Numbered from the stretch's first letter, positions 1 through 18,703 are shown. The stretch is DNA of 21,197 nt from a virus (IMGVR_UViG_2713896790_000003), one strand, 5' to 3'. Made by a program: numbers and translations. Notes: generated from the letters alone by a model not told the origin.

Positions 1-1770
1 CGTCAGCGCATTCAGCCCCAGTGTCAGACTGTCTTTTATGACCTGGAATGCCGGGCCAGCCACTCCATTCAGTTTCGGAGTAACCGTGGCACTGCCGGCG
101 GTGAACACCAGCTCCAGCGTCTGCCAGTCGTTACTGTAATTCCCGAACTCGCCCAACTTTGTGTTTCCGGCTTTCTTGTGATGCATCAGATTCAGTTTGC
201 CGTCTGTGGTCTGGGTGAAGAACGACATCAGGAACGGGTTACCAGTCCCGGTCATCGCCACGACGTCAGGTAACGCTACATCGGTATACAGATAAATTCC
301 CAGACCGAACTGGTTGTTGGTCAGTGCGCCTGACAGTCGAAACTTACAGCTCAGTCTGCCACCCCGTGTCAGCAGGGAGACTGCGTCATCCACCGGGCGC
401 GTCAGGGACCAGGCTTTATTGCTCTGCTTGGTGATCTTAAATACACCATCTGACAACTGAATTCCGCCATTCTTAATGCTCCAGCCCTGCGCAGCAGCGT
501 CTCCGGCTGTCGGCAACAGGGAGATTGTGCGTATGGATGCATCTTCAGACGGCCCCAATGGCGTGTCGCCGCCGGGCGAGGGTTTGATTTCCGGTGCCTT
601 ACCACTAATGAAGGCTAAGGTGCGACCGGCTACGTTCAGAATAGCAGTTGCCATACGATCGGGAATAATGCCACGACGCGCCCATGAGCTGAAATGCGTC
701 GGGCGATTTGATGATACCCAGTTTTTGTTCGTTCGGGATGCCGAACCGTAATAACCAGACCCGGCAATATCAGGATCTTCTGACGGGTTGTTTGTCGGTG
801 TATTAACTCCGCTACCATCGGTCATAAAGGGAACAAAATAAATCTGCTGGGATTCTTTACCTTTATATGCACCATATACCACTTCATATTGCGTACCGTG
901 TTCTTGTTTCCACGCGTATGTCGTGTCGCCACAAATCCAGGGGACTGATGCCGGACTTCCACCGTGACACTGCGCTGCCAGCCCGGCAAGGTCAGCACGG
1001 AACTGCTGTACCATTGCAAGAAATGCTGCTGGCTGCTGGGCGTAACTGGCATTCGTCATATCGAATTCCCCCTGCATCCAGCATATCGCCAGCAAAACGT
1101 TTTTCGGGTTTTTCTGCAATGCTGCCTTCGTGCGGAAAAGCAGATCCTGATATAACGGCTTACCCACTCCCCAGCGAGCCGAATCCTGACTGGCTCCCGT
1201 GGACTCGCTGAATGTCCCCTCCGTGCCCTGGGTGAATGCCGAACCACCACGACAGCATGGTACCAGCAGGATCCCCGCATTATTAGGGATATACGGAAGC
1301 AGTTTTTTGGCAATATGTAAGCCCTGTCCGACACAGCCGTACTGCCCTTTGCTCAGGTCAGCCCGGGGATGGTTAATCGTACTCATATCCTGAACATCAT
1401 GCAGACAATGGTCAGCAGGAATGATGTCGTTAAATACGCATACTTCACCACCGGGAGTCACTGTGTTACGACGGGCCAGTTGCTTAATGCGCGGATGGGG
1501 CGCATCGTATGAATCCGGAAGCGGAAGCCCTTCACCGTAAGCCATGGCATTGGATTGCCCGGCCAGTACGATGACGTAGTACCACTCCGGCTCAGTTGCA
1601 CCACTGACGACCACATCACCTTCTGCTGCAATCGCCTGCATCAGGGTATAAGGGGTTATGGCCACCGGACTACCAAACGGCTGCCAGCCCTCCTTCAGTT
1701 TTTGTGTCAGTCGTTTCGCAAGGTCTGACGGCGATGCCGCCCTGACCACGTCATAGTGTTTAAATGCCAT
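1..1770 (-). CDS. Partial prophage sialate O-acetylesterase-like protein (NanS-p / YjhS-like); 3' end runs off the window
   Basis: Minus-strand frame open from ATG at 1770-1768 to position 1, checked codon by codon (590 aa, no stop). N-terminus MAFKHYDVVRAAS..., a GQSNAM motif typical of SASA/DUF303 esterases. Position downstream of the Q-tRNA block matches where 933W-type phages carry this gene. Not in the ORF track because it has no stop in the window. Confidence 0.7.
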   Translation of the reverse strand, partial: MAFKHYDVVRAASPSDLAKRLTQKLKEGWQPFGSPVAITPYTLMQAIAAEGDVVVSGATEPEWYYVIVLAGQSNAMAYGEGLPLPDSYDAPHPRIKQLARRNTVTPGGEVCVFNDIIPADHCLHDVQDMSTINHPRADLSKGQYGCVGQGLHIAKKLLPYIPNNAGILLVPCCRGGSAFTQGTEGTFSESTGASQDSARWGVGKPLYQDLLFRTKAALQKNPKNVLLAICWMQGEFDMTNASYAQQPAAFLAMVQQFRADLAGLAAQCHGGSPASVPWICGDTTYAWKQEHGTQYEVVYGAYKGKESQQIYFVPFMTDGSGVNTPTNNPSEDPDIAGSGYYGSASRTNKNWVSSNRPTHFSSWARRGIIPDRMATAILNVAGRTLAFISGKAPEIKPSPGGDTPLGPSEDASIRTISLLPTAGDAAAQGWSIKNGGIQLSDGVFKITKQSNKAWSLTRPVDDAVSLLTRGGRLSCKFRLSGALTNNQFGLGIYLYTDVALPDVVAMTGTGNPFLMSFFTQTTDGKLNLMHHKKAGNTKLGEFGNYSNDWQTLELVFTAGSATVTPKLNGVAGPAFQVIKDSLTLGLNALT

Positions 1771-1962
1771 GAATCCTCCCGGGCGGGATAATGTTGTGAG
1801 TCAGATAAGGAGCAGGCTGAAGTCCGGAAGTTACAGGACAATGGCAGAAGGGAGACTACAGCCCGCAATTCGAAAAAGACCGCGCAGTTGCGCAGAGTGA
1901 TTACTATGGGGTATTATTCGCCAGCTGAAATATTACTTCACGTTTTATTGTTTATTCCTTGC

Positions 1963-1992
1963 CGCCCGCGTCTCCCAGCGCGGGCTTTTTTT
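1963..1992 (+). terminator. Putative rho-independent terminator, plus-strand orientation
   Basis: GC hairpin cccgcg-tctcccag-cgcggg followed by cttttttt on the plus strand; the minus-strand reading lacks a T-run. Confidence 0.4.
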
Positions 1993-2002
1993 GTCCATAA
2001 GA

Positions 2003-2236
2003 AAGCCCCTCCGGAGAGGGGCTAAAGCCGCGTATCTGTATCATCATGCACATGGTGCCGGGTGCCTCCCGGTGAGTTCAGTCCGGTGCCACTAAACCCG
2101 CGTCATTCTCGTTTTGATAATCAGAGATTATACCGTCACCAGTCGCCCCTCCGCTCAGGGGGATTCACCATGCGAAATTTTTTTAACAAATGCCCAGTCT
2201 GACAGGCAACTGTCAACTTACTGAATTGTGAGCAAC
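2003..2236. repeat. Copy 1 of a duplicated ~230-bp element at the stx-equivalent locus
   Basis: Shares with copy 2 the blocks aaagcccctccggagaggggct (8-bp stem hairpin), catggtgccgggtgcctcccggtga.ttcagt, cccctccgc.cagggggattcaccatgc, ttttaacaaa, tgtcaac and ctgaattgtgag in the same order. Confidence 0.7.
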
Positions 2237-2488
2237 ATAGCATTTAACGGGGAACCTGTTTTCTGCAGTAAAAAGGCCCACCGGAGCGGATGGGCCTGGA
2301 AGGATAGCGGTCATGTGATGCCGGTTTCCCGGTAACTCAGCACCGGTATCTGAGTCAACGTTTTCTCTACTGGGTCATTTCCGATACGCCCTGCCTGCTG
2401 ACAGGCTTTCATCACATCTGAAAATATAGCACCCTGACTGATACTGTAGTACCTAAGGTTCCAGAAACTGTGATGTATCCGGCACAGA

Positions 2489-2700
2489 AAAGCCCCTCCG
2501 GAGAGGGGCTGGAGAGTGGCGCTATGTGCCATTGCATGGTGCCGGGTGCCTCCCGGTGAATTCAGTACCAGCACCTGAATCCGCGATTATCCCATATACC
2601 TACTCGCTGATTGCCCCTCCGCACAGGGGGATTCACCATGCCAGTTTCTTTTAACAAACTCCCCGCAAACCAGACAACAGTCAACCGCCTGAATTGTGAG
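2489..2700. repeat. Copy 2 of the duplicated ~230-bp element, abutting the 3' side of the Arg(TCT) tRNA
   Basis: Same ordered sequence blocks as copy 1; roughly 75-85 percent identity by eye. On the minus strand the hairpin is followed by ttttct, so it may act as a terminator. Confidence 0.7.
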
Positions 2701-14251: not shown

Positions 14252-14917
14252 TCAAATAAAACCAGCTGCCTTCCGGCGTTCGTATTCCTGTTTCAGCCGT
14301 TCAATTGGCGTTGGCCCTTGCGGGTGTTTCGCCCCTTCCAGTTGTCGTCGCACTGGCGGAACACTCATCCCGTTACCAACATGCTTTGCCCATTTCGTCA
14401 GTTGCCGTTCCGCAAGTCGTTTTAACTCACCCTGCGTCATCTGGCGCTCAATCCCTCTGGTACGCATTTCGAGGCAGATGTGGTACAGCACAGGCTGAGG
14501 CCACGGATATTTGTCGCTTCCGTCATATCGCCAGGATTCATCACGCCAGCGGCGGTACTCCTCCATCACAGCATCCACCGTCAGGCCAAATGGATTGGCC
14601 CCGCTTTCTGAAATCAGCGCCACAAACTCAGCCAGGTCCGGAGGCCATGTTTCACCCGCCCGGCAGCGGTCCATGCACTGGCGGCAGACCTGTCGGATTT
14701 GCTGCTCAGTCATCGCGCCAATCTGTGCAATCCAGAGCTTCGAAGGTGCGGCCCCGTTCTTCTGGGTCCAGCGGTTCGAATAAACCTCCCCCATGAGTTC
14801 CCACAGCTTCCAGACCGTTTCCGTCGCTGATAAATCCGTTTTCACGTTCCCACTGCTCACGTGCTGCCCGAATTTCCTGAACTGCCCGTGATGCGGTGCC
14901 ACCTGGTGCTGCTGCAT
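14252..14917 (-). CDS. Lambda P-like replication protein (helicase loader); start uncertain
   Basis: C-terminal two-thirds align by eye with lambda P (YPWPQPVLYHICLEMR... against YPWKSNAHYWLVTNLYQ..., FVAL against FVAW). Frame is open back to ATG 14917 (RBS AAGGGGG), overlapping the O-like 3' end by 212 nt; alternative starts at 14794 and 14713. Confidence 0.6.
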   Translation of the reverse strand: MQQHQVAPHHGQFRKFGQHVSSGNVKTDLSATETVWKLWELMGEVYSNRWTQKNGAAPSKLWIAQIGAMTEQQIRQVCRQCMDRCRAGETWPPDLAEFVALISESGANPFGLTVDAVMEEYRRWRDESWRYDGSDKYPWPQPVLYHICLEMRTRGIERQMTQGELKRLAERQLTKWAKHVGNGMSVPPVRRQLEGAKHPQGPTPIERLKQEYERRKAAGFI

Positions 14918-15752
14918 GGTTTACCCCCTTGCTGACTGGCTTAACCTGCGCCCTGACGTGATTTACGTGACGGGCGAATTTCTGCTCCCACTGAACCTGC
15001 GTGAAAACTTTCCCCTCCGCTGCCCAGTAGTCCCGGAAAGCGGCAAGTTCAGCAGGTGTAAATTCCGGCTCCGGCAAAGCCATCCCCCACAACGCAGCCC
15101 GTCGTCGAAAATCCGGCGACGGATGCCAGTCATCGACCATCGGAAATTTCCCGATGGGTTCGCTCAGTCCATCCAGGGATGCAGGTTCTGCTGCCTGCAA
15201 CGGCGTACCACTCGACTCACTGGTCGGAGCACTCTCGCGCACGTGCGCGTTATGTGTGGGGTTTAATTCTTTATCTGTATCTTTATCTGTCGTGACTCGT
15301 CGTGACATGTCGTGACATATGCGTGACTCGTCGTGACACCCCTCATTCTGTTTTCGTAATTTTTCCCTCTCGCGCTGCGCTCTCTTGCGCTCTGCCGGGG
15401 ATTTCGCGGTTTGTGAAACGTTGCCATTGTCCTCTTTCAGTACCTGGCGTTTTTCCCATCCGGTGATTAAATCTCCATCAAGTACCCGCCCCTGCATTGC
15501 CTGTAAAATTGAATCAATTACTTCTTCCGTCACATCAAGCGCACTTGCTAAATCTTCCGTCGTGACATCAATGTGACCACGTAGTGACACGCCGTGACAT
15601 GTCGTGACATTTCGTGACGCGCTCACCAGAAGGTGGATATACACTGCCATCACTGTTGCAATTGGCTGCCCTGACACCCTGGCAATTGTTCGCCACTTAG
15701 GGTCATTTGGCATGTCATGCCATAATCTGAGCCAGGCGTTAGCCATACTCAC
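14706..15752 (-). CDS. Replisome organiser (lambda O-like) replication initiator
   Basis: 348-aa ORF; N-terminus MANAWLRLWHDMPNDPKWRTIAR resembles the replisome-organiser N-terminal domain; lies between a cII-position gene and the P-like gene; contains iteron arrays. Confidence 0.65.
   Translation of the reverse strand: MSMANAWLRLWHDMPNDPKWRTIARVSGQPIATVMAVYIHLLVSASRNVTTCHGVSLRGHIDVTTEDLASALDVTEEVIDSILQAMQGRVLDGDLITGWEKRQVLKEDNGNVSQTAKSPAERKRAQREREKLRKQNEGCHDESRICHDMSRRVTTDKDTDKELNPTHNAHVRESAPTSESSGTPLQAAEPASLDGLSEPIGKFPMVDDWHPSPDFRRRAALWGMALPEPEFTPAELAAFRDYWAAEGKVFTQVQWEQKFARHVNHVRAQVKPVSKGVNHAAAPGGTASRAVQEIRAAREQWERENGFISDGNGLEAVGTHGGGLFEPLDPEERGRTFEALDCTDWRDD
15291..15340. repeat. Iteron array 1 (putative origin), five ~10-bp direct repeats of consensus GTCGTGACAT
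   Basis: cgtgac recurs at 15291, 15301, 15311, 15322 and 15332; flanked by the AT-rich tract tttaattctttatctgtatctttatctgt (15262-15290); inside the O-like gene. Confidence 0.55.
15563..15620. repeat. Iteron array 2, six ~10-bp direct repeats of the same GTGAC-core motif
   Basis: gtgac recurs at 15563, 15574, 15584, 15594, 15604 and 15614, within the N-terminal coding part of the O-like gene. Confidence 0.5.
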
Positions 15753-15817
15753 CTCTTCTGATACCGAATCTTTTTACTCACAAATTGCCGGAAGTGATCC
15801 GGTATGAATATTGCGAG

Positions 15818-16243
15818 TCAATGCACAGCCACAATATTTCCTGCAGGGCCACCACGATTCATCTGGTTGAAACCAGCGATCGCCACTGCGACAAAATCAT
15901 CAGCGTCTCTCACCAGTCGTTCCCGCGTCTCCACCAGCTCCCGAAAATAAGCTGAACTGTGGCTGCGCATTCGGGCCACCAGCAGAGGCGGCATTGCTTT
16001 TTCGATCGCTGGTAACAACGCCTGAATTTTTTTAACCGCATCAGGAGTGTCTTTCTCCACCCAGCGGAAAATTTTCTGGGTATTGCGAGCCAGGGCTTCC
16101 GGATGGCTGTCGTCATATAATTCCGGGAACGTCATACCAAGCTCAAAATAAGCCCGGGTTATTTCAGCTGCCGGAACTTTTTCACCGTCCGGATGCGCCC
16201 AGGCATTCATCGCCATGCGGATGTGCTCATGCCTGATTTTCAT
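15818..16243 (-). CDS. YdaT-like protein in the cII position
   Basis: 141-aa ORF MKIRHEHIRMAMNAW...IVAVH; resembles Rac YdaT as I recall it and sits directly after the Cro-like gene with a 17-nt overlap. Confidence 0.5.
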   Translation of the reverse strand: MKIRHEHIRMAMNAWAHPDGEKVPAAEITRAYFELGMTFPELYDDSHPEALARNTQKIFRWVEKDTPDAVKKIQALLPAIEKAMPPLLVARMRSHSSAYFRELVETRERLVRDADDFVAVAIAGFNQMNRGGPAGNIVAVH

Positions 16244-16502
16244 GAATCAACTCCGATGCATTTGGTGTGTTAGCCTTGAATCCAACAGGTAAGCCGTCGG
16301 TTGGATTCGGGTAAATATCAGGCCGGAGTTCATGAGGTGTAACCTCGAAATTCGTTACTTCAGCAACACGTAATGCTTTTTCAGGGCTGAATCTTTCATA
16401 GCCCCCCAGCACTCGACTTACATGCACCTGAGATAAACCCGTTAGCTTCCCAAACTGTAGCTGGGTGATATGTTTCTCTTTTAAATAGTCTCTTAAGTTC
16501 AT
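16227..16502 (-). CDS. Cro-like / DicC-like HTH regulator
   Basis: 91 aa from ATG at 16502 (the track start at 16508 is TTG); HTH LQFGKLTGLSQVHVSRVLGG; divergent from the repressor gene. Confidence 0.55.
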   Translation of the reverse strand: MNLRDYLKEKHITQLQFGKLTGLSQVHVSRVLGGYERFSPEKALRVAEVTNFEVTPHELRPDIYPNPTDGLPVGFKANTPNASELIHENQA

Positions 16503-16508
16503 AGCCAA

Positions 16509-16609
16509 CCTTCTACGTTATGCCTCGAGCAAATATTAGCCCCGCTAATTTTAAAGATCAATAGCCAGACTATCTTTGATAATATTGGTAAAACAAATAA
16601 ACTCTATGT
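16509..16609. promoter_or_regulatory. Divergent promoter/operator region between the Cro-like and repressor genes
   Basis: AT-rich 100-bp intergenic region with inverted repeats (ttagc-ccc-gctaa at 16536-16548; atcaa...ttgat near 16558-16585). Confidence 0.5.
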
Positions 16610-17071
16610 ATGAAAAAAACACGCGAAGTGATTGCAACTCCAGAAGCGAGCAAGAATTTAAAAGCCGCATGGAATGCAAGAAAAAAAGAGCTGAAGCTGA
16701 CTCAAGAGCTGGCGGCTGAGTTGTTGGGATTCGAATCTCAAGGCACCGTTAGCCAGTATCTGAACGGCAAGATACCGGTAAATACCGACGCTGCGCTAAA
16801 ATTTGCGGCTCTGTTAAAGGTAAAACCAGAGGACATTCGAGAAGACCTTAAAGACTTAATGAATTATGTAAGATCATCAGATACTTATGATGATAACTTT
16901 TCAGGCAAAGGATGGAGGCTGGTCAATGAAGAACAGGCAGAGTTACTTAACCTCTTCGAGATTCTACCTGCGTCAGAAAAAGCCAAACTCCTTAACCAGC
17001 TACGTGGACTAAACAAGCTCTACGAGGAAGCCTTCGAGAACATGCTGGCACTAAAGAAACGTAACCAGTAG
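16610..17071 (+). CDS. dicA: DicA-like prophage repressor, no LexA-type autocleavage domain
   Basis: 153 aa; HTH LTQELAAELLGFESQGTVSQYLNG; C-terminus ...LFEILPASEKAKLLNQLRGLNKLYEEAFENMLALKKRNQ parallels the DicA C-terminus as I recall it; no Ala-Gly / Ser-Lys peptidase segment. Confidence 0.7.
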   Translation: MKKTREVIATPEASKNLKAAWNARKKELKLTQELAAELLGFESQGTVSQYLNGKIPVNTDAALKFAALLKVKPEDIREDLKDLMNYVRSSDTYDDNFSGKGWRLVNEEQAELLNLFEILPASEKAKLLNQLRGLNKLYEEAFENMLALKKRNQ

Positions 17072-17096
17072 CCACCGCTCACTACCCCATCCACAA

Positions 17097-17128
17097 CAAA
17101 AAAACCGACGTCTTAGTCGGTTTTTTTG
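17097..17128 (+). terminator. Rho-independent terminator after the repressor gene (bidirectional in form)
   Basis: Stem accgac / gtcggt (17104-17109 and 17116-17121) flanked by an A-run upstream and T-run downstream. Confidence 0.65.
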
Positions 17129-17224
17129 TGCCATAACTTCTGCAAATCAGCTGTATAACTAATATTTTTCCCTTGAAAAAACATTTACATAGTTACCAAA
17201 TCAAAAATATCATACGCCATACTG

Positions 17225-18372: not shown

Positions 18373-18703
18373 TTCACCCTCCTGAGGGTTGGTAATTAAG
18401 GAGTTCTCCACGGGTCAGGTGGAGTGCGTGCGCCGGACACGGGTGAGCATCCGGCACTGACAGTTTACTGAAAGGATATGTCCCTGAAAAGTCAGGGCAT
18501 AACGCGAAAGCGCACGGCGAAATTGGTCTCTCTGTACGGTGTCGTTAAATTTAGTTCGACCGTGCGCTTCCGGTTGTGGCAATCCGCGAAATGGCGCGGC
18601 GGTAAGTATGGCGGGGTTATTCCTTCCCCGCTGAGGACACCGGGTTGTCAGGTTGACCATACGCTTAAGTGACAACTCCGCTGCAACGCCCTCTGTTATC
18701 AAT

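Follow-up and report, generated by a model that had tools for sequence, protein, structure and literature searches.

The 21,197-nucleotide viral stretch IMGVR_UViG_2713896790_000003 (hereafter the window) carries, within the gene of a phage replication initiator, two arrays of a 10-bp repeat with a GTGAC core and an AT-rich tract that adjoins one of them. We consider it very probable that a lambdoid prophage integrated beside ompW has in these elements its iteron-type replication origin, located inside its own initiator gene, and such an origin very likely works like oriλ of lambda or oriL of SPP1. As indicated by the comparison of homologues, the arrays and the AT-rich tract are under selection as DNA, beyond their coding role. 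An earlier sequence-only reading of the window had placed the prophage origin inside the initiator gene, and this proposal is supported by the selection at the DNA level, by the retention of the AT-rich tract and by the linkage of the repeats to the N-terminal domain of the initiator; that the origin would fire is what we infer from these features. The elements concerned are listed below, with core positions given as GTGAC starts on the plus strand.

14706-15746, minus strand: initiator gene, 346 aa, start MANAWLRLWHDMPNDPKW, with a Shine-Dalgarno-like GAGGTGAG upstream
15559-15620, minus strand: iteron block A (second cluster), six 10/11-bp units in direct succession, with cores at 15562, 15573, 15584, 15594, 15604 and 15614
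15526-15537, plus strand: single inverted iteron copy, the twelfth copy, with GTCAC at 15529-15533
15289-15339, minus strand: iteron block B (first cluster), five contiguous 10/11-bp units, cores at 15292, 15302, 15312, 15323 and 15333
15262-15288, minus strand: AT-rich tract, about 21% GC, directly past block B in gene orientation
15236-15249, no strand assigned: perfect GC-rich palindrome of 14 bp (CGCGCACGTGCGCG), just past the AT-rich tract; relative to the mosaic joint described below, it lies on the side of the C-module

Two phased repeat arrays and an AT-rich tract within the initiator gene

The 11 repeats of the two clusters all have one orientation, with start-to-start steps of 10, 10, 11 and 10 bp in the first cluster, 229 bp between the clusters, and 11, 11, 10, 10 and 10 bp in the second. 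The sequence-only reading had reported eleven near-consensus copies at about 10-bp spacing, in two clusters some 230 bp apart of which the first adjoins an AT-rich tract, and its count, consensus, coordinates and layout proved right. The two clusters hold 11 of the 24 plus-strand GTGAC of the 21.2-kb window, and the densest 60 bp contain six, against a maximum of three across 300 first-order Markov simulations. CGTGAC occurs 15 times in the window (8.4 expected), nine of them within the clusters, and the exact 10-mer consensus GTCGTGACAT four times, none outside the clusters. An iteron-type theta origin was defined operationally by at least three direct repeats of a short sequence with the same orientation and regular spacing, by an AT-rich unwinding element next to them, and by repeats that are selected as DNA and linked to a cognate initiator; as to the first of these, the window has 5 + 6 copies with 10/11-bp steps. 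GTGAC at 18669, 18710 and 18739 were rejected as iterons, their flanks and spacing being unrelated.

On the plus strand, the successive units of block B are GTCGTGACTC, GTCGTGACAT, GTCGTGACAT, TGCGTGACTC and GTCGTGACAC; the gene strand reads ATGTCACGAC and codes for linker residues 137-153 (CHDESRICHDMSRRVTT). Block A codes for residues 43-62 (ASRNVTTCHGVSLRGHIDVT), and the inverted copy, GATGTGACGGAA on the gene strand, for D71 V72 T73. The short repeated peptide segments noticed in the initial reading (CHDESRICHDMSRRVTT; SRNVTTCHGVSLRGHIDVTT) are real and arise because the DNA repeat is read in three frames. The AT-rich tract, a candidate DNA-unwinding element, contains TCTTTATCTGT twice in tandem; on the gene strand it reads ACAGATAAAGATACAGATAAAGAATTAAA, i.e., (GATAAA/GATACA)n, which codes for DKDTDKELN. 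A second, weaker low-GC patch lies between the blocks at 15497-15527, just after the inverted iteron (about 35% GC over 15500-15539).

The palindrome at 15236-15249, of which Rac-SA53 has an imperfect version, may belong to the origin, much like the palindrome that stands beside the AT-rich region of oriλ; its role is uncertain. A promoter and terminator scan of 14600-17200 gave nothing above chance within the origin, the "terminator-like" matches being merely this palindrome. A DnaA-box-like TATATCCAC, seen by eye at about 15636-15644, was dropped, as the codons of Y36/I37 that it covers vary freely among homologues.

Conservation of the layout and change of repeat type among relatives

The N-terminal 165 residues of the initiator retrieve at least 1007 protein clusters, and a genome scan gave 56 loci, which come from Gamma-, Beta- and Alphaproteobacteria as well as from metagenome-assembled genomes of Acidobacteria and one of Gemmataceae. 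For each gene, an unsupervised scan of the initial 650 nt picked out the 5-mer that had the largest number of 9-12-nt steps. At least three phased steps of one 5-mer were found in 44 of the 53 related loci, against a maximum of two in 530 shuffles, three being reached by only 1 of 95 flanking segments. The repeats hold constant positions among loci, at about nt 129-160 and about nt 360-420 of the gene, and the second block always ends at the AT-rich tract. A counterpart of block B occurs in 44 of the 53 loci. These same two positions are occupied, according to the subfamily, by units of GTCACGC, CGAACGC(A), GTAACGC or GTGACGC, the ...ACGC being common to all. Two or more AGATA[AC][AG] hexamers come right after the last iteron in 44/53 loci, regardless of host GC and of the type of iteron, and this tract is present even in loci of 66-69% GC. 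Most relatives have four copies in block A and three to five in block B, the 6 + 5 copies of the window being an expansion that includes, in block A, a 21-bp insertion equal to two units and seven amino acids (TCHGVSL); iteron number changes through in-frame indels.

Selection on the repeats as DNA

The repeat is not a peptide repeat, because its period is 10/11 bp and its core falls in all three codon phases (3, 1, 2, 3, 2, 1 in block A and 2, 3, 2, 3, 1 in block B), reading V-T, x-H or S-R. Codon usage was compared among 22 GTCAC-type homologues, from loci of 33% GC (Entomomonas) to 69% GC (Pseudothauera). Over the cores, 13 conserved residues had a mean codon entropy of 0.23 bit; for 55 conserved residues elsewhere it was 1.48 bit (Mann-Whitney p=1.8e-7), and a second subfamily of 14 CGAACG-type homologues gave 0.29 versus 1.40 bit (p=6.5e-6). 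Within block A of the 22 homologues, S44 is TCA in 21/22, V47 GTC in 22/22, T48 ACG in 22/22, G57 GGT in 22/22, H58 CAC in 21/21 and V61 GTC in 22/22, and within block B, H145 is CAC in 19/19, S148 TCA in 22/22 and V151 GTC in 22/22, whereas equally invariant residues elsewhere (R7, L8, P13, P16, R19, T20, V32, G86, V88 and G96 among them) draw on three to six codons. V72 is GTG in all 19 homologues that keep Val, so the inverted copy is preserved, and most GTCAC-type loci have GTGAC at its position in the gene (nt 193 or 214). Codons of the AT-rich tract are held likewise (D154 GAT 20/20, K155 AAA 17/18, D156 GAT 17/19), even at 66-69% GC.

The invariance in the alignment of S44, V47, T48, R56, G57, H58, V61, T62, H145, S148 and V151 would also be expected if the repeats were a by-product of constraint on the protein, with no role as DNA. 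Such a constraint does not account for a period that is not a multiple of 3, with one pentamer read in three frames, nor for synonymous codons that are fixed only at the cores. Moreover, block B and the AT-rich tract code for a disordered linker, and from one subfamily to another the peptide is replaced wholesale, with the 10-bp phasing and the positions retained. We give this explanation practically no credence, the three-frame reading and the codon test together excluding it.

Mosaic joint, neighboring genes, and linkage of the repeats to the N-terminal domain

DNA comparison places a mosaic joint between the N- and C-modules of the initiator gene at about 15268-15288, within the AT-rich tract. 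With Rac-type ydaU the C-terminal half shares 92-93% DNA identity, and the N-terminal half, including both blocks, matches phages Evi, Tritos and others at about 88%. In Evi and Tritos, the same N-terminal half is fused to a different C-domain; a prophage locus (L007) has the Evi/Tritos type of C-domain followed by a DnaC-like ATPase, and Pseudomonas phage P7869 has a 4 + 4 GTCAC layout upstream of a primase/helicase. An exchange of the C-domain and the loader thus leaves both blocks joined to the N-domain. Because of these swaps and of the comparison with Rac-type YdaU, we regard the iterons as going with the N-domain and the AT-rich tract as a shared hinge, which may also provide the homology through which modules are exchanged.

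Rac YdaU (oriJ region) resembles the initiator of the window in gene order (ydaS-ydaT-initiator-loader), in a DnaT-like C-terminal half and in the AT-rich tract. It differs by a DUF1376 N-domain and by three TGTTCAA before the AT-rich tract instead of GTCAC repeats. The AT-rich tract is common to initiators with unrelated N- and C-domains. In the ydaU gene of Rac-SA53 (locus 1501-2571, minus strand; L008), which has no GTCAC repeats, three TGTTCAA and one inverted copy lie at about nt 360-465 of the gene, just upstream of the same DKDTD-coding tract, and these copies may be the iterons of a Rac-type origin (oriJ region).

The initiator gene occupies the position of lambda O, upstream of a lambda-P-like loader, and its neighbors are as follows.

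16610-17071, divergent: cI-like repressor
16227-16508, minus strand: Cro-like helix-turn-helix protein of the YdaS family, upstream of the initiator gene
15818-16243, minus strand: YdaT protein in the cII position, upstream of the initiator gene
14252-14917, minus strand: open reading frame (ORF) of the lambda-P-like helicase loader (Pfam PF06992, E=5e-16; PHROG 109 "P-like helicase loader")

The tested stretch of the window is 100% identical to a lambdoid prophage beside ompW in Escherichia coli 118UI, in which RefSeq labels the initiator "DnaT-like ssDNA-binding domain-containing protein" (ssDNA, single-stranded DNA); the database name of the E. coli protein is "phage replisome organizer." Upstream of its RefSeq start (14713), the P-like ORF continues for 204 nt, overlapping the initiator gene's 3' end (14706-14917) in a different frame. 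The Pfam P-domain alignment starts 14 residues upstream of the RefSeq Met, and PHROG 15931 (482 positions) is matched by the initiator over positions 1-347 and by the P-like ORF over 280-482, which suggests that the P-like start is mis-set, or that the two genes have an overlapping or fused arrangement in some phages. A search of a plasmid collection returned 8 E. coli records only, several of them chromosome-sized, with no sign of a plasmid replicon.

A mosaic joint that falls in the AT-rich tract, a tract shared with Rac-type ydaU despite a different N-domain, and the presence of several copies of the module in many E. coli genomes (up to 5 places), by which titration would be possible, could all be taken to mean that the arrays are binding sites of the initiator or of another protein for another function, such as autoregulation of the early operon, incompatibility with or exclusion of related superinfecting phages through titration of their initiators, or a recombination linker favoring module exchange at the joint. 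We consider this improbable. Iterons and a conserved low-GC tract in the linker-coding part of the gene, with a loader gene downstream, are the canonical layout of an origin, and no other candidate origin was noticed in the stretches of the window examined. A recombination linker would need neither 10-bp helical phasing nor conservation across phyla, and any of these functions would leave unexplained the obligatory juxtaposition with the AT-rich tract and the loader gene.

Predicted structure and family of the initiator

The AlphaFold models of the initiator have a mean pLDDT of 67-68, with 85-95 for the helices of the N-domain. The predicted N-domain (about residues 1-100) comprises helices 2-14, 16-25 and 29-45, a poorly defined loop (46-62) and a winged helix (63-70, 74-84, hairpin 85-96); beyond it, the prediction gives a basic helix at 117-134, a linker that is disordered (137-190) and, at about 192-278, a DnaT-like ssDNA-binding domain. 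In this model, block A codes for the end of helix 29-45 and for the loop before the winged helix, and block B with the AT-rich tract codes for the disordered interdomain linker.

The C-terminal domain belongs to the DnaT ssDNA-binding domain family (PF17948, residues 201-267, 64.1 bits for a cut-off of 25 bits) and resembles known structures (PDB 6aep, E=4.9e-7; Foldseek 4ou6, E=1.2e-5, TM-score 0.78-0.80, target-length normalised). DnaT itself was rejected, the NCBIfam equivalog, which was the only NCBIfam match, remaining below threshold (97 bits for a cut-off of 201). PHROGs point to a replication initiation protein, with modest matches to 4880 "replisome organizer" (E=4.5e-5) and 10469 "DnaD-like helicase loader" (E=4.8e-7).

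The full-length Foldseek search was dominated by the DnaT domain, and the N-domain was modelled separately; its model, of moderate confidence, comes closest to the N-terminal domain of DnaD and to RepA_N initiators, a relationship of fold with either being at most tentative. Pfam has no domain over residues 1-190, and at E<=10 the N-domain has only a sub-threshold match to a Crp-type helix-turn-helix. Membership in the lambda O family was rejected, since Phage_rep_O was matched neither by the complete protein (E<=0.01) nor by the N-domain (E<=10). Membership in the PF09681/G38P family is not demonstrable: the N-domain of the window has no match, and the close homologue of locus L007 has 12.7 bits (E=0.13) for a threshold of 23.3, its sub-threshold alignment spanning profile positions 1-118 of 121. 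Profile comparison (hhalign) with SPP1 G38P gave a probability of 0.06, i.e., no similarity. There is also no match to the RepA_N Pfam family, of which the initiator is not a demonstrable member.

Residues K121, R122, Q124 and R127 of the basic helix and an 8-residue indel at 108-116 (window positions of about 15363-15425) differ consistently between the GTCAC-type and the CGAACG/GTAACG-type homologues; class-specific residues sought in the predicted recognition helix 74-84 were not found. The basic helix may carry the iteron specificity, the pattern being confounded by phylogeny. Moreover, the block A residues SRNVT..RGH..VT become SNATERGRT where the iteron goes from GTCACGC to CGAACGC. A rather speculative and unlikely idea would be that site and reader reside in the same nucleotides, the loop or the basic helix contacting the iteron, so that a change of the repeat would alter the cis-site and the trans-specificity together. 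If such a phenomenon exists, new origin/initiator pairs, orthogonal to one another, could arise by a route built into the gene itself; it would also follow that several prophage origins of the same type, coexisting in one E. coli genome, would cross-fire.

Comparison with known origins and proposed mechanism

As in lambda O/oriλ and in Stx phages P27 and 933W, the candidate origin lies in the initiator gene and has direct, putatively initiator-binding repeats followed by an AT-rich tract. As in lambda, a P-type loader gene is found immediately downstream, and the origin would be transcribed from an early rightward operon. oriλ falls in the part of O that codes for the interdomain linker, and so do block B and the AT-rich tract in the present initiator gene. 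The iterons of λ are 18-19 bp long, separated and endowed with internal dyad symmetry, whereas the units described here are of 10 bp, contiguous and non-palindromic, and form two blocks 229 bp apart against one in λ. Other differences from λ are an AT-rich tract made of a conserved hexamer repeat, a DnaT-like C-domain and the absence of a sequence relationship to O. The λ origin has been located in the middle of O, and iteron number in O of Stx phages varies by in-frame indels that add residues (PMC7466680); these extra iterons and extra residues parallel the 21-bp, 7-residue insertion of the window.

In SPP1, direct repeats along with an AT-rich DNA-unwinding element (oriL) lie inside the gene of the initiator G38P, the loader and helicase genes follow, and G38P has a further binding site in a repeat region some distance away (PMC6316719). 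The origin layout inside the initiator gene and the existence of a second repeat site are thus alike, but the second block of the window is 229 bp off in the same gene, whereas that of SPP1 is about 13 kb away. SPP1 gene 38 has short tandem repeats with 9-nt spacing, three copies in all. The likeness to SPP1 holds for the layout of oriL and does not extend to the sequence of G38P, to which no similarity was detected. A similar modular logic is found in the RepA_N plasmid initiators (pSK41, pTZ2162) and in RepA of the Vibrio PLE.

We propose the following mechanism, in which we infer binding, melting, loader recruitment and the division of labor between the blocks. Transcription of the early operon, which runs rightward (cro-like YdaS, cII-position YdaT, initiator, P-like loader), would cross the origin. 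The N-terminal winged-helix domain, possibly together with the basic helix 117-134, would bind the 10-bp GTCACG units, and contiguous units of one helical turn would align the protomers on one face of the DNA in an O-some-like, filament-like oligomer. Block B would then put stress on the adjoining (GATAAA/GATACA)n tract, which would melt, and the DnaT-like domain would hold the single strands and/or dock the P-like loader carrying the host DnaB. Finally, block A, with its 6 units and the inverted one, 229 bp off, would probably be brought into this complex by looping and serve there in an auxiliary or regulatory role.

Several points weigh against the origin proposal. Few or no phased repeats are found in L033, L039, L046, L055, L056 and L061, which are low-GC or divergent members, and L043 is without block A. 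The homologues are related by descent, so that the codon and architecture statistics overstate independence; the within-gene codon contrast is stark despite this kinship. For the most part, the residues that set the iteron classes apart are iteron-encoded, and cis-trans covariation is thus not cleanly separable from the overlap of coding sequence and site. The AF2 models have moderate confidence, the block A loop and the linker being poorly modelled. Our literature search found no published binding, unwinding or origin activity for this initiator family.

Because block A is absent in L043 and displaced in L058 (nt 194-234), block B with the AT-rich tract looks like the core of the origin, the role of block A being the least secure part of the proposal. 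A tentative alternative, less likely than the main proposal, is that block B and the AT-rich tract alone constitute the origin and that block A, although bound by the same initiator, is a control element in its own right, serving for copy control/handcuffing, as a transcriptional roadblock or in auto-repression, or as a dispensable enhancer. Block B abuts the AT-rich tract in every locus, whereas the copy number of block A, in addition to its absence or displacement in these two loci, is variable; two iterons next to the AT-rich region suffice for λ in vitro (PMC7466680), and SPP1 G38P too has a second binding site at a distance (PMC6316719). Nevertheless, the codon constraint on block A is as strong as that on block B, its position is fixed in most loci, and the distal extra iterons of Stx phages are needed in vivo (PMC7466680). 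This alternative would refine, rather than replace, the proposal of an iteron-type origin inside the initiator gene.

Distribution and significance

Of 5426 complete E. coli genomes, 2215 (about 40%) carry the N-domain/iteron module, often in several prophages each; O157:H7 strains are among them. Outside E. coli, the module occurs in prophages and temperate phages of genera such as Pseudomonas, Aeromonas, Bordetella and Chromobacterium. The literature search found no description of this initiator family or of its origin; the iterons of a Pf-5 paper were rejected as a precedent, as they concern an unrelated island. An intragenic iteron origin is an expected kind of element; here it would belong to a very widespread initiator family whose origin, as far as our searches show, is uncharacterised.

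The arrays offer a clean example of a DNA site freezing an overlapping protein sequence in three frames across phyla. The candidate origin, with its core of about 80 bp and its auxiliary block, would give a handle on prophage replication after induction, on cross-activation or titration between co-resident prophages with the same iterons, and on the in situ amplification of flanking chromosomal genes. Moreover, the GTCACGC, CGAACGC, GTAACGC and GTGACGC subfamilies may constitute a source of naturally orthogonal iteron/initiator pairs.
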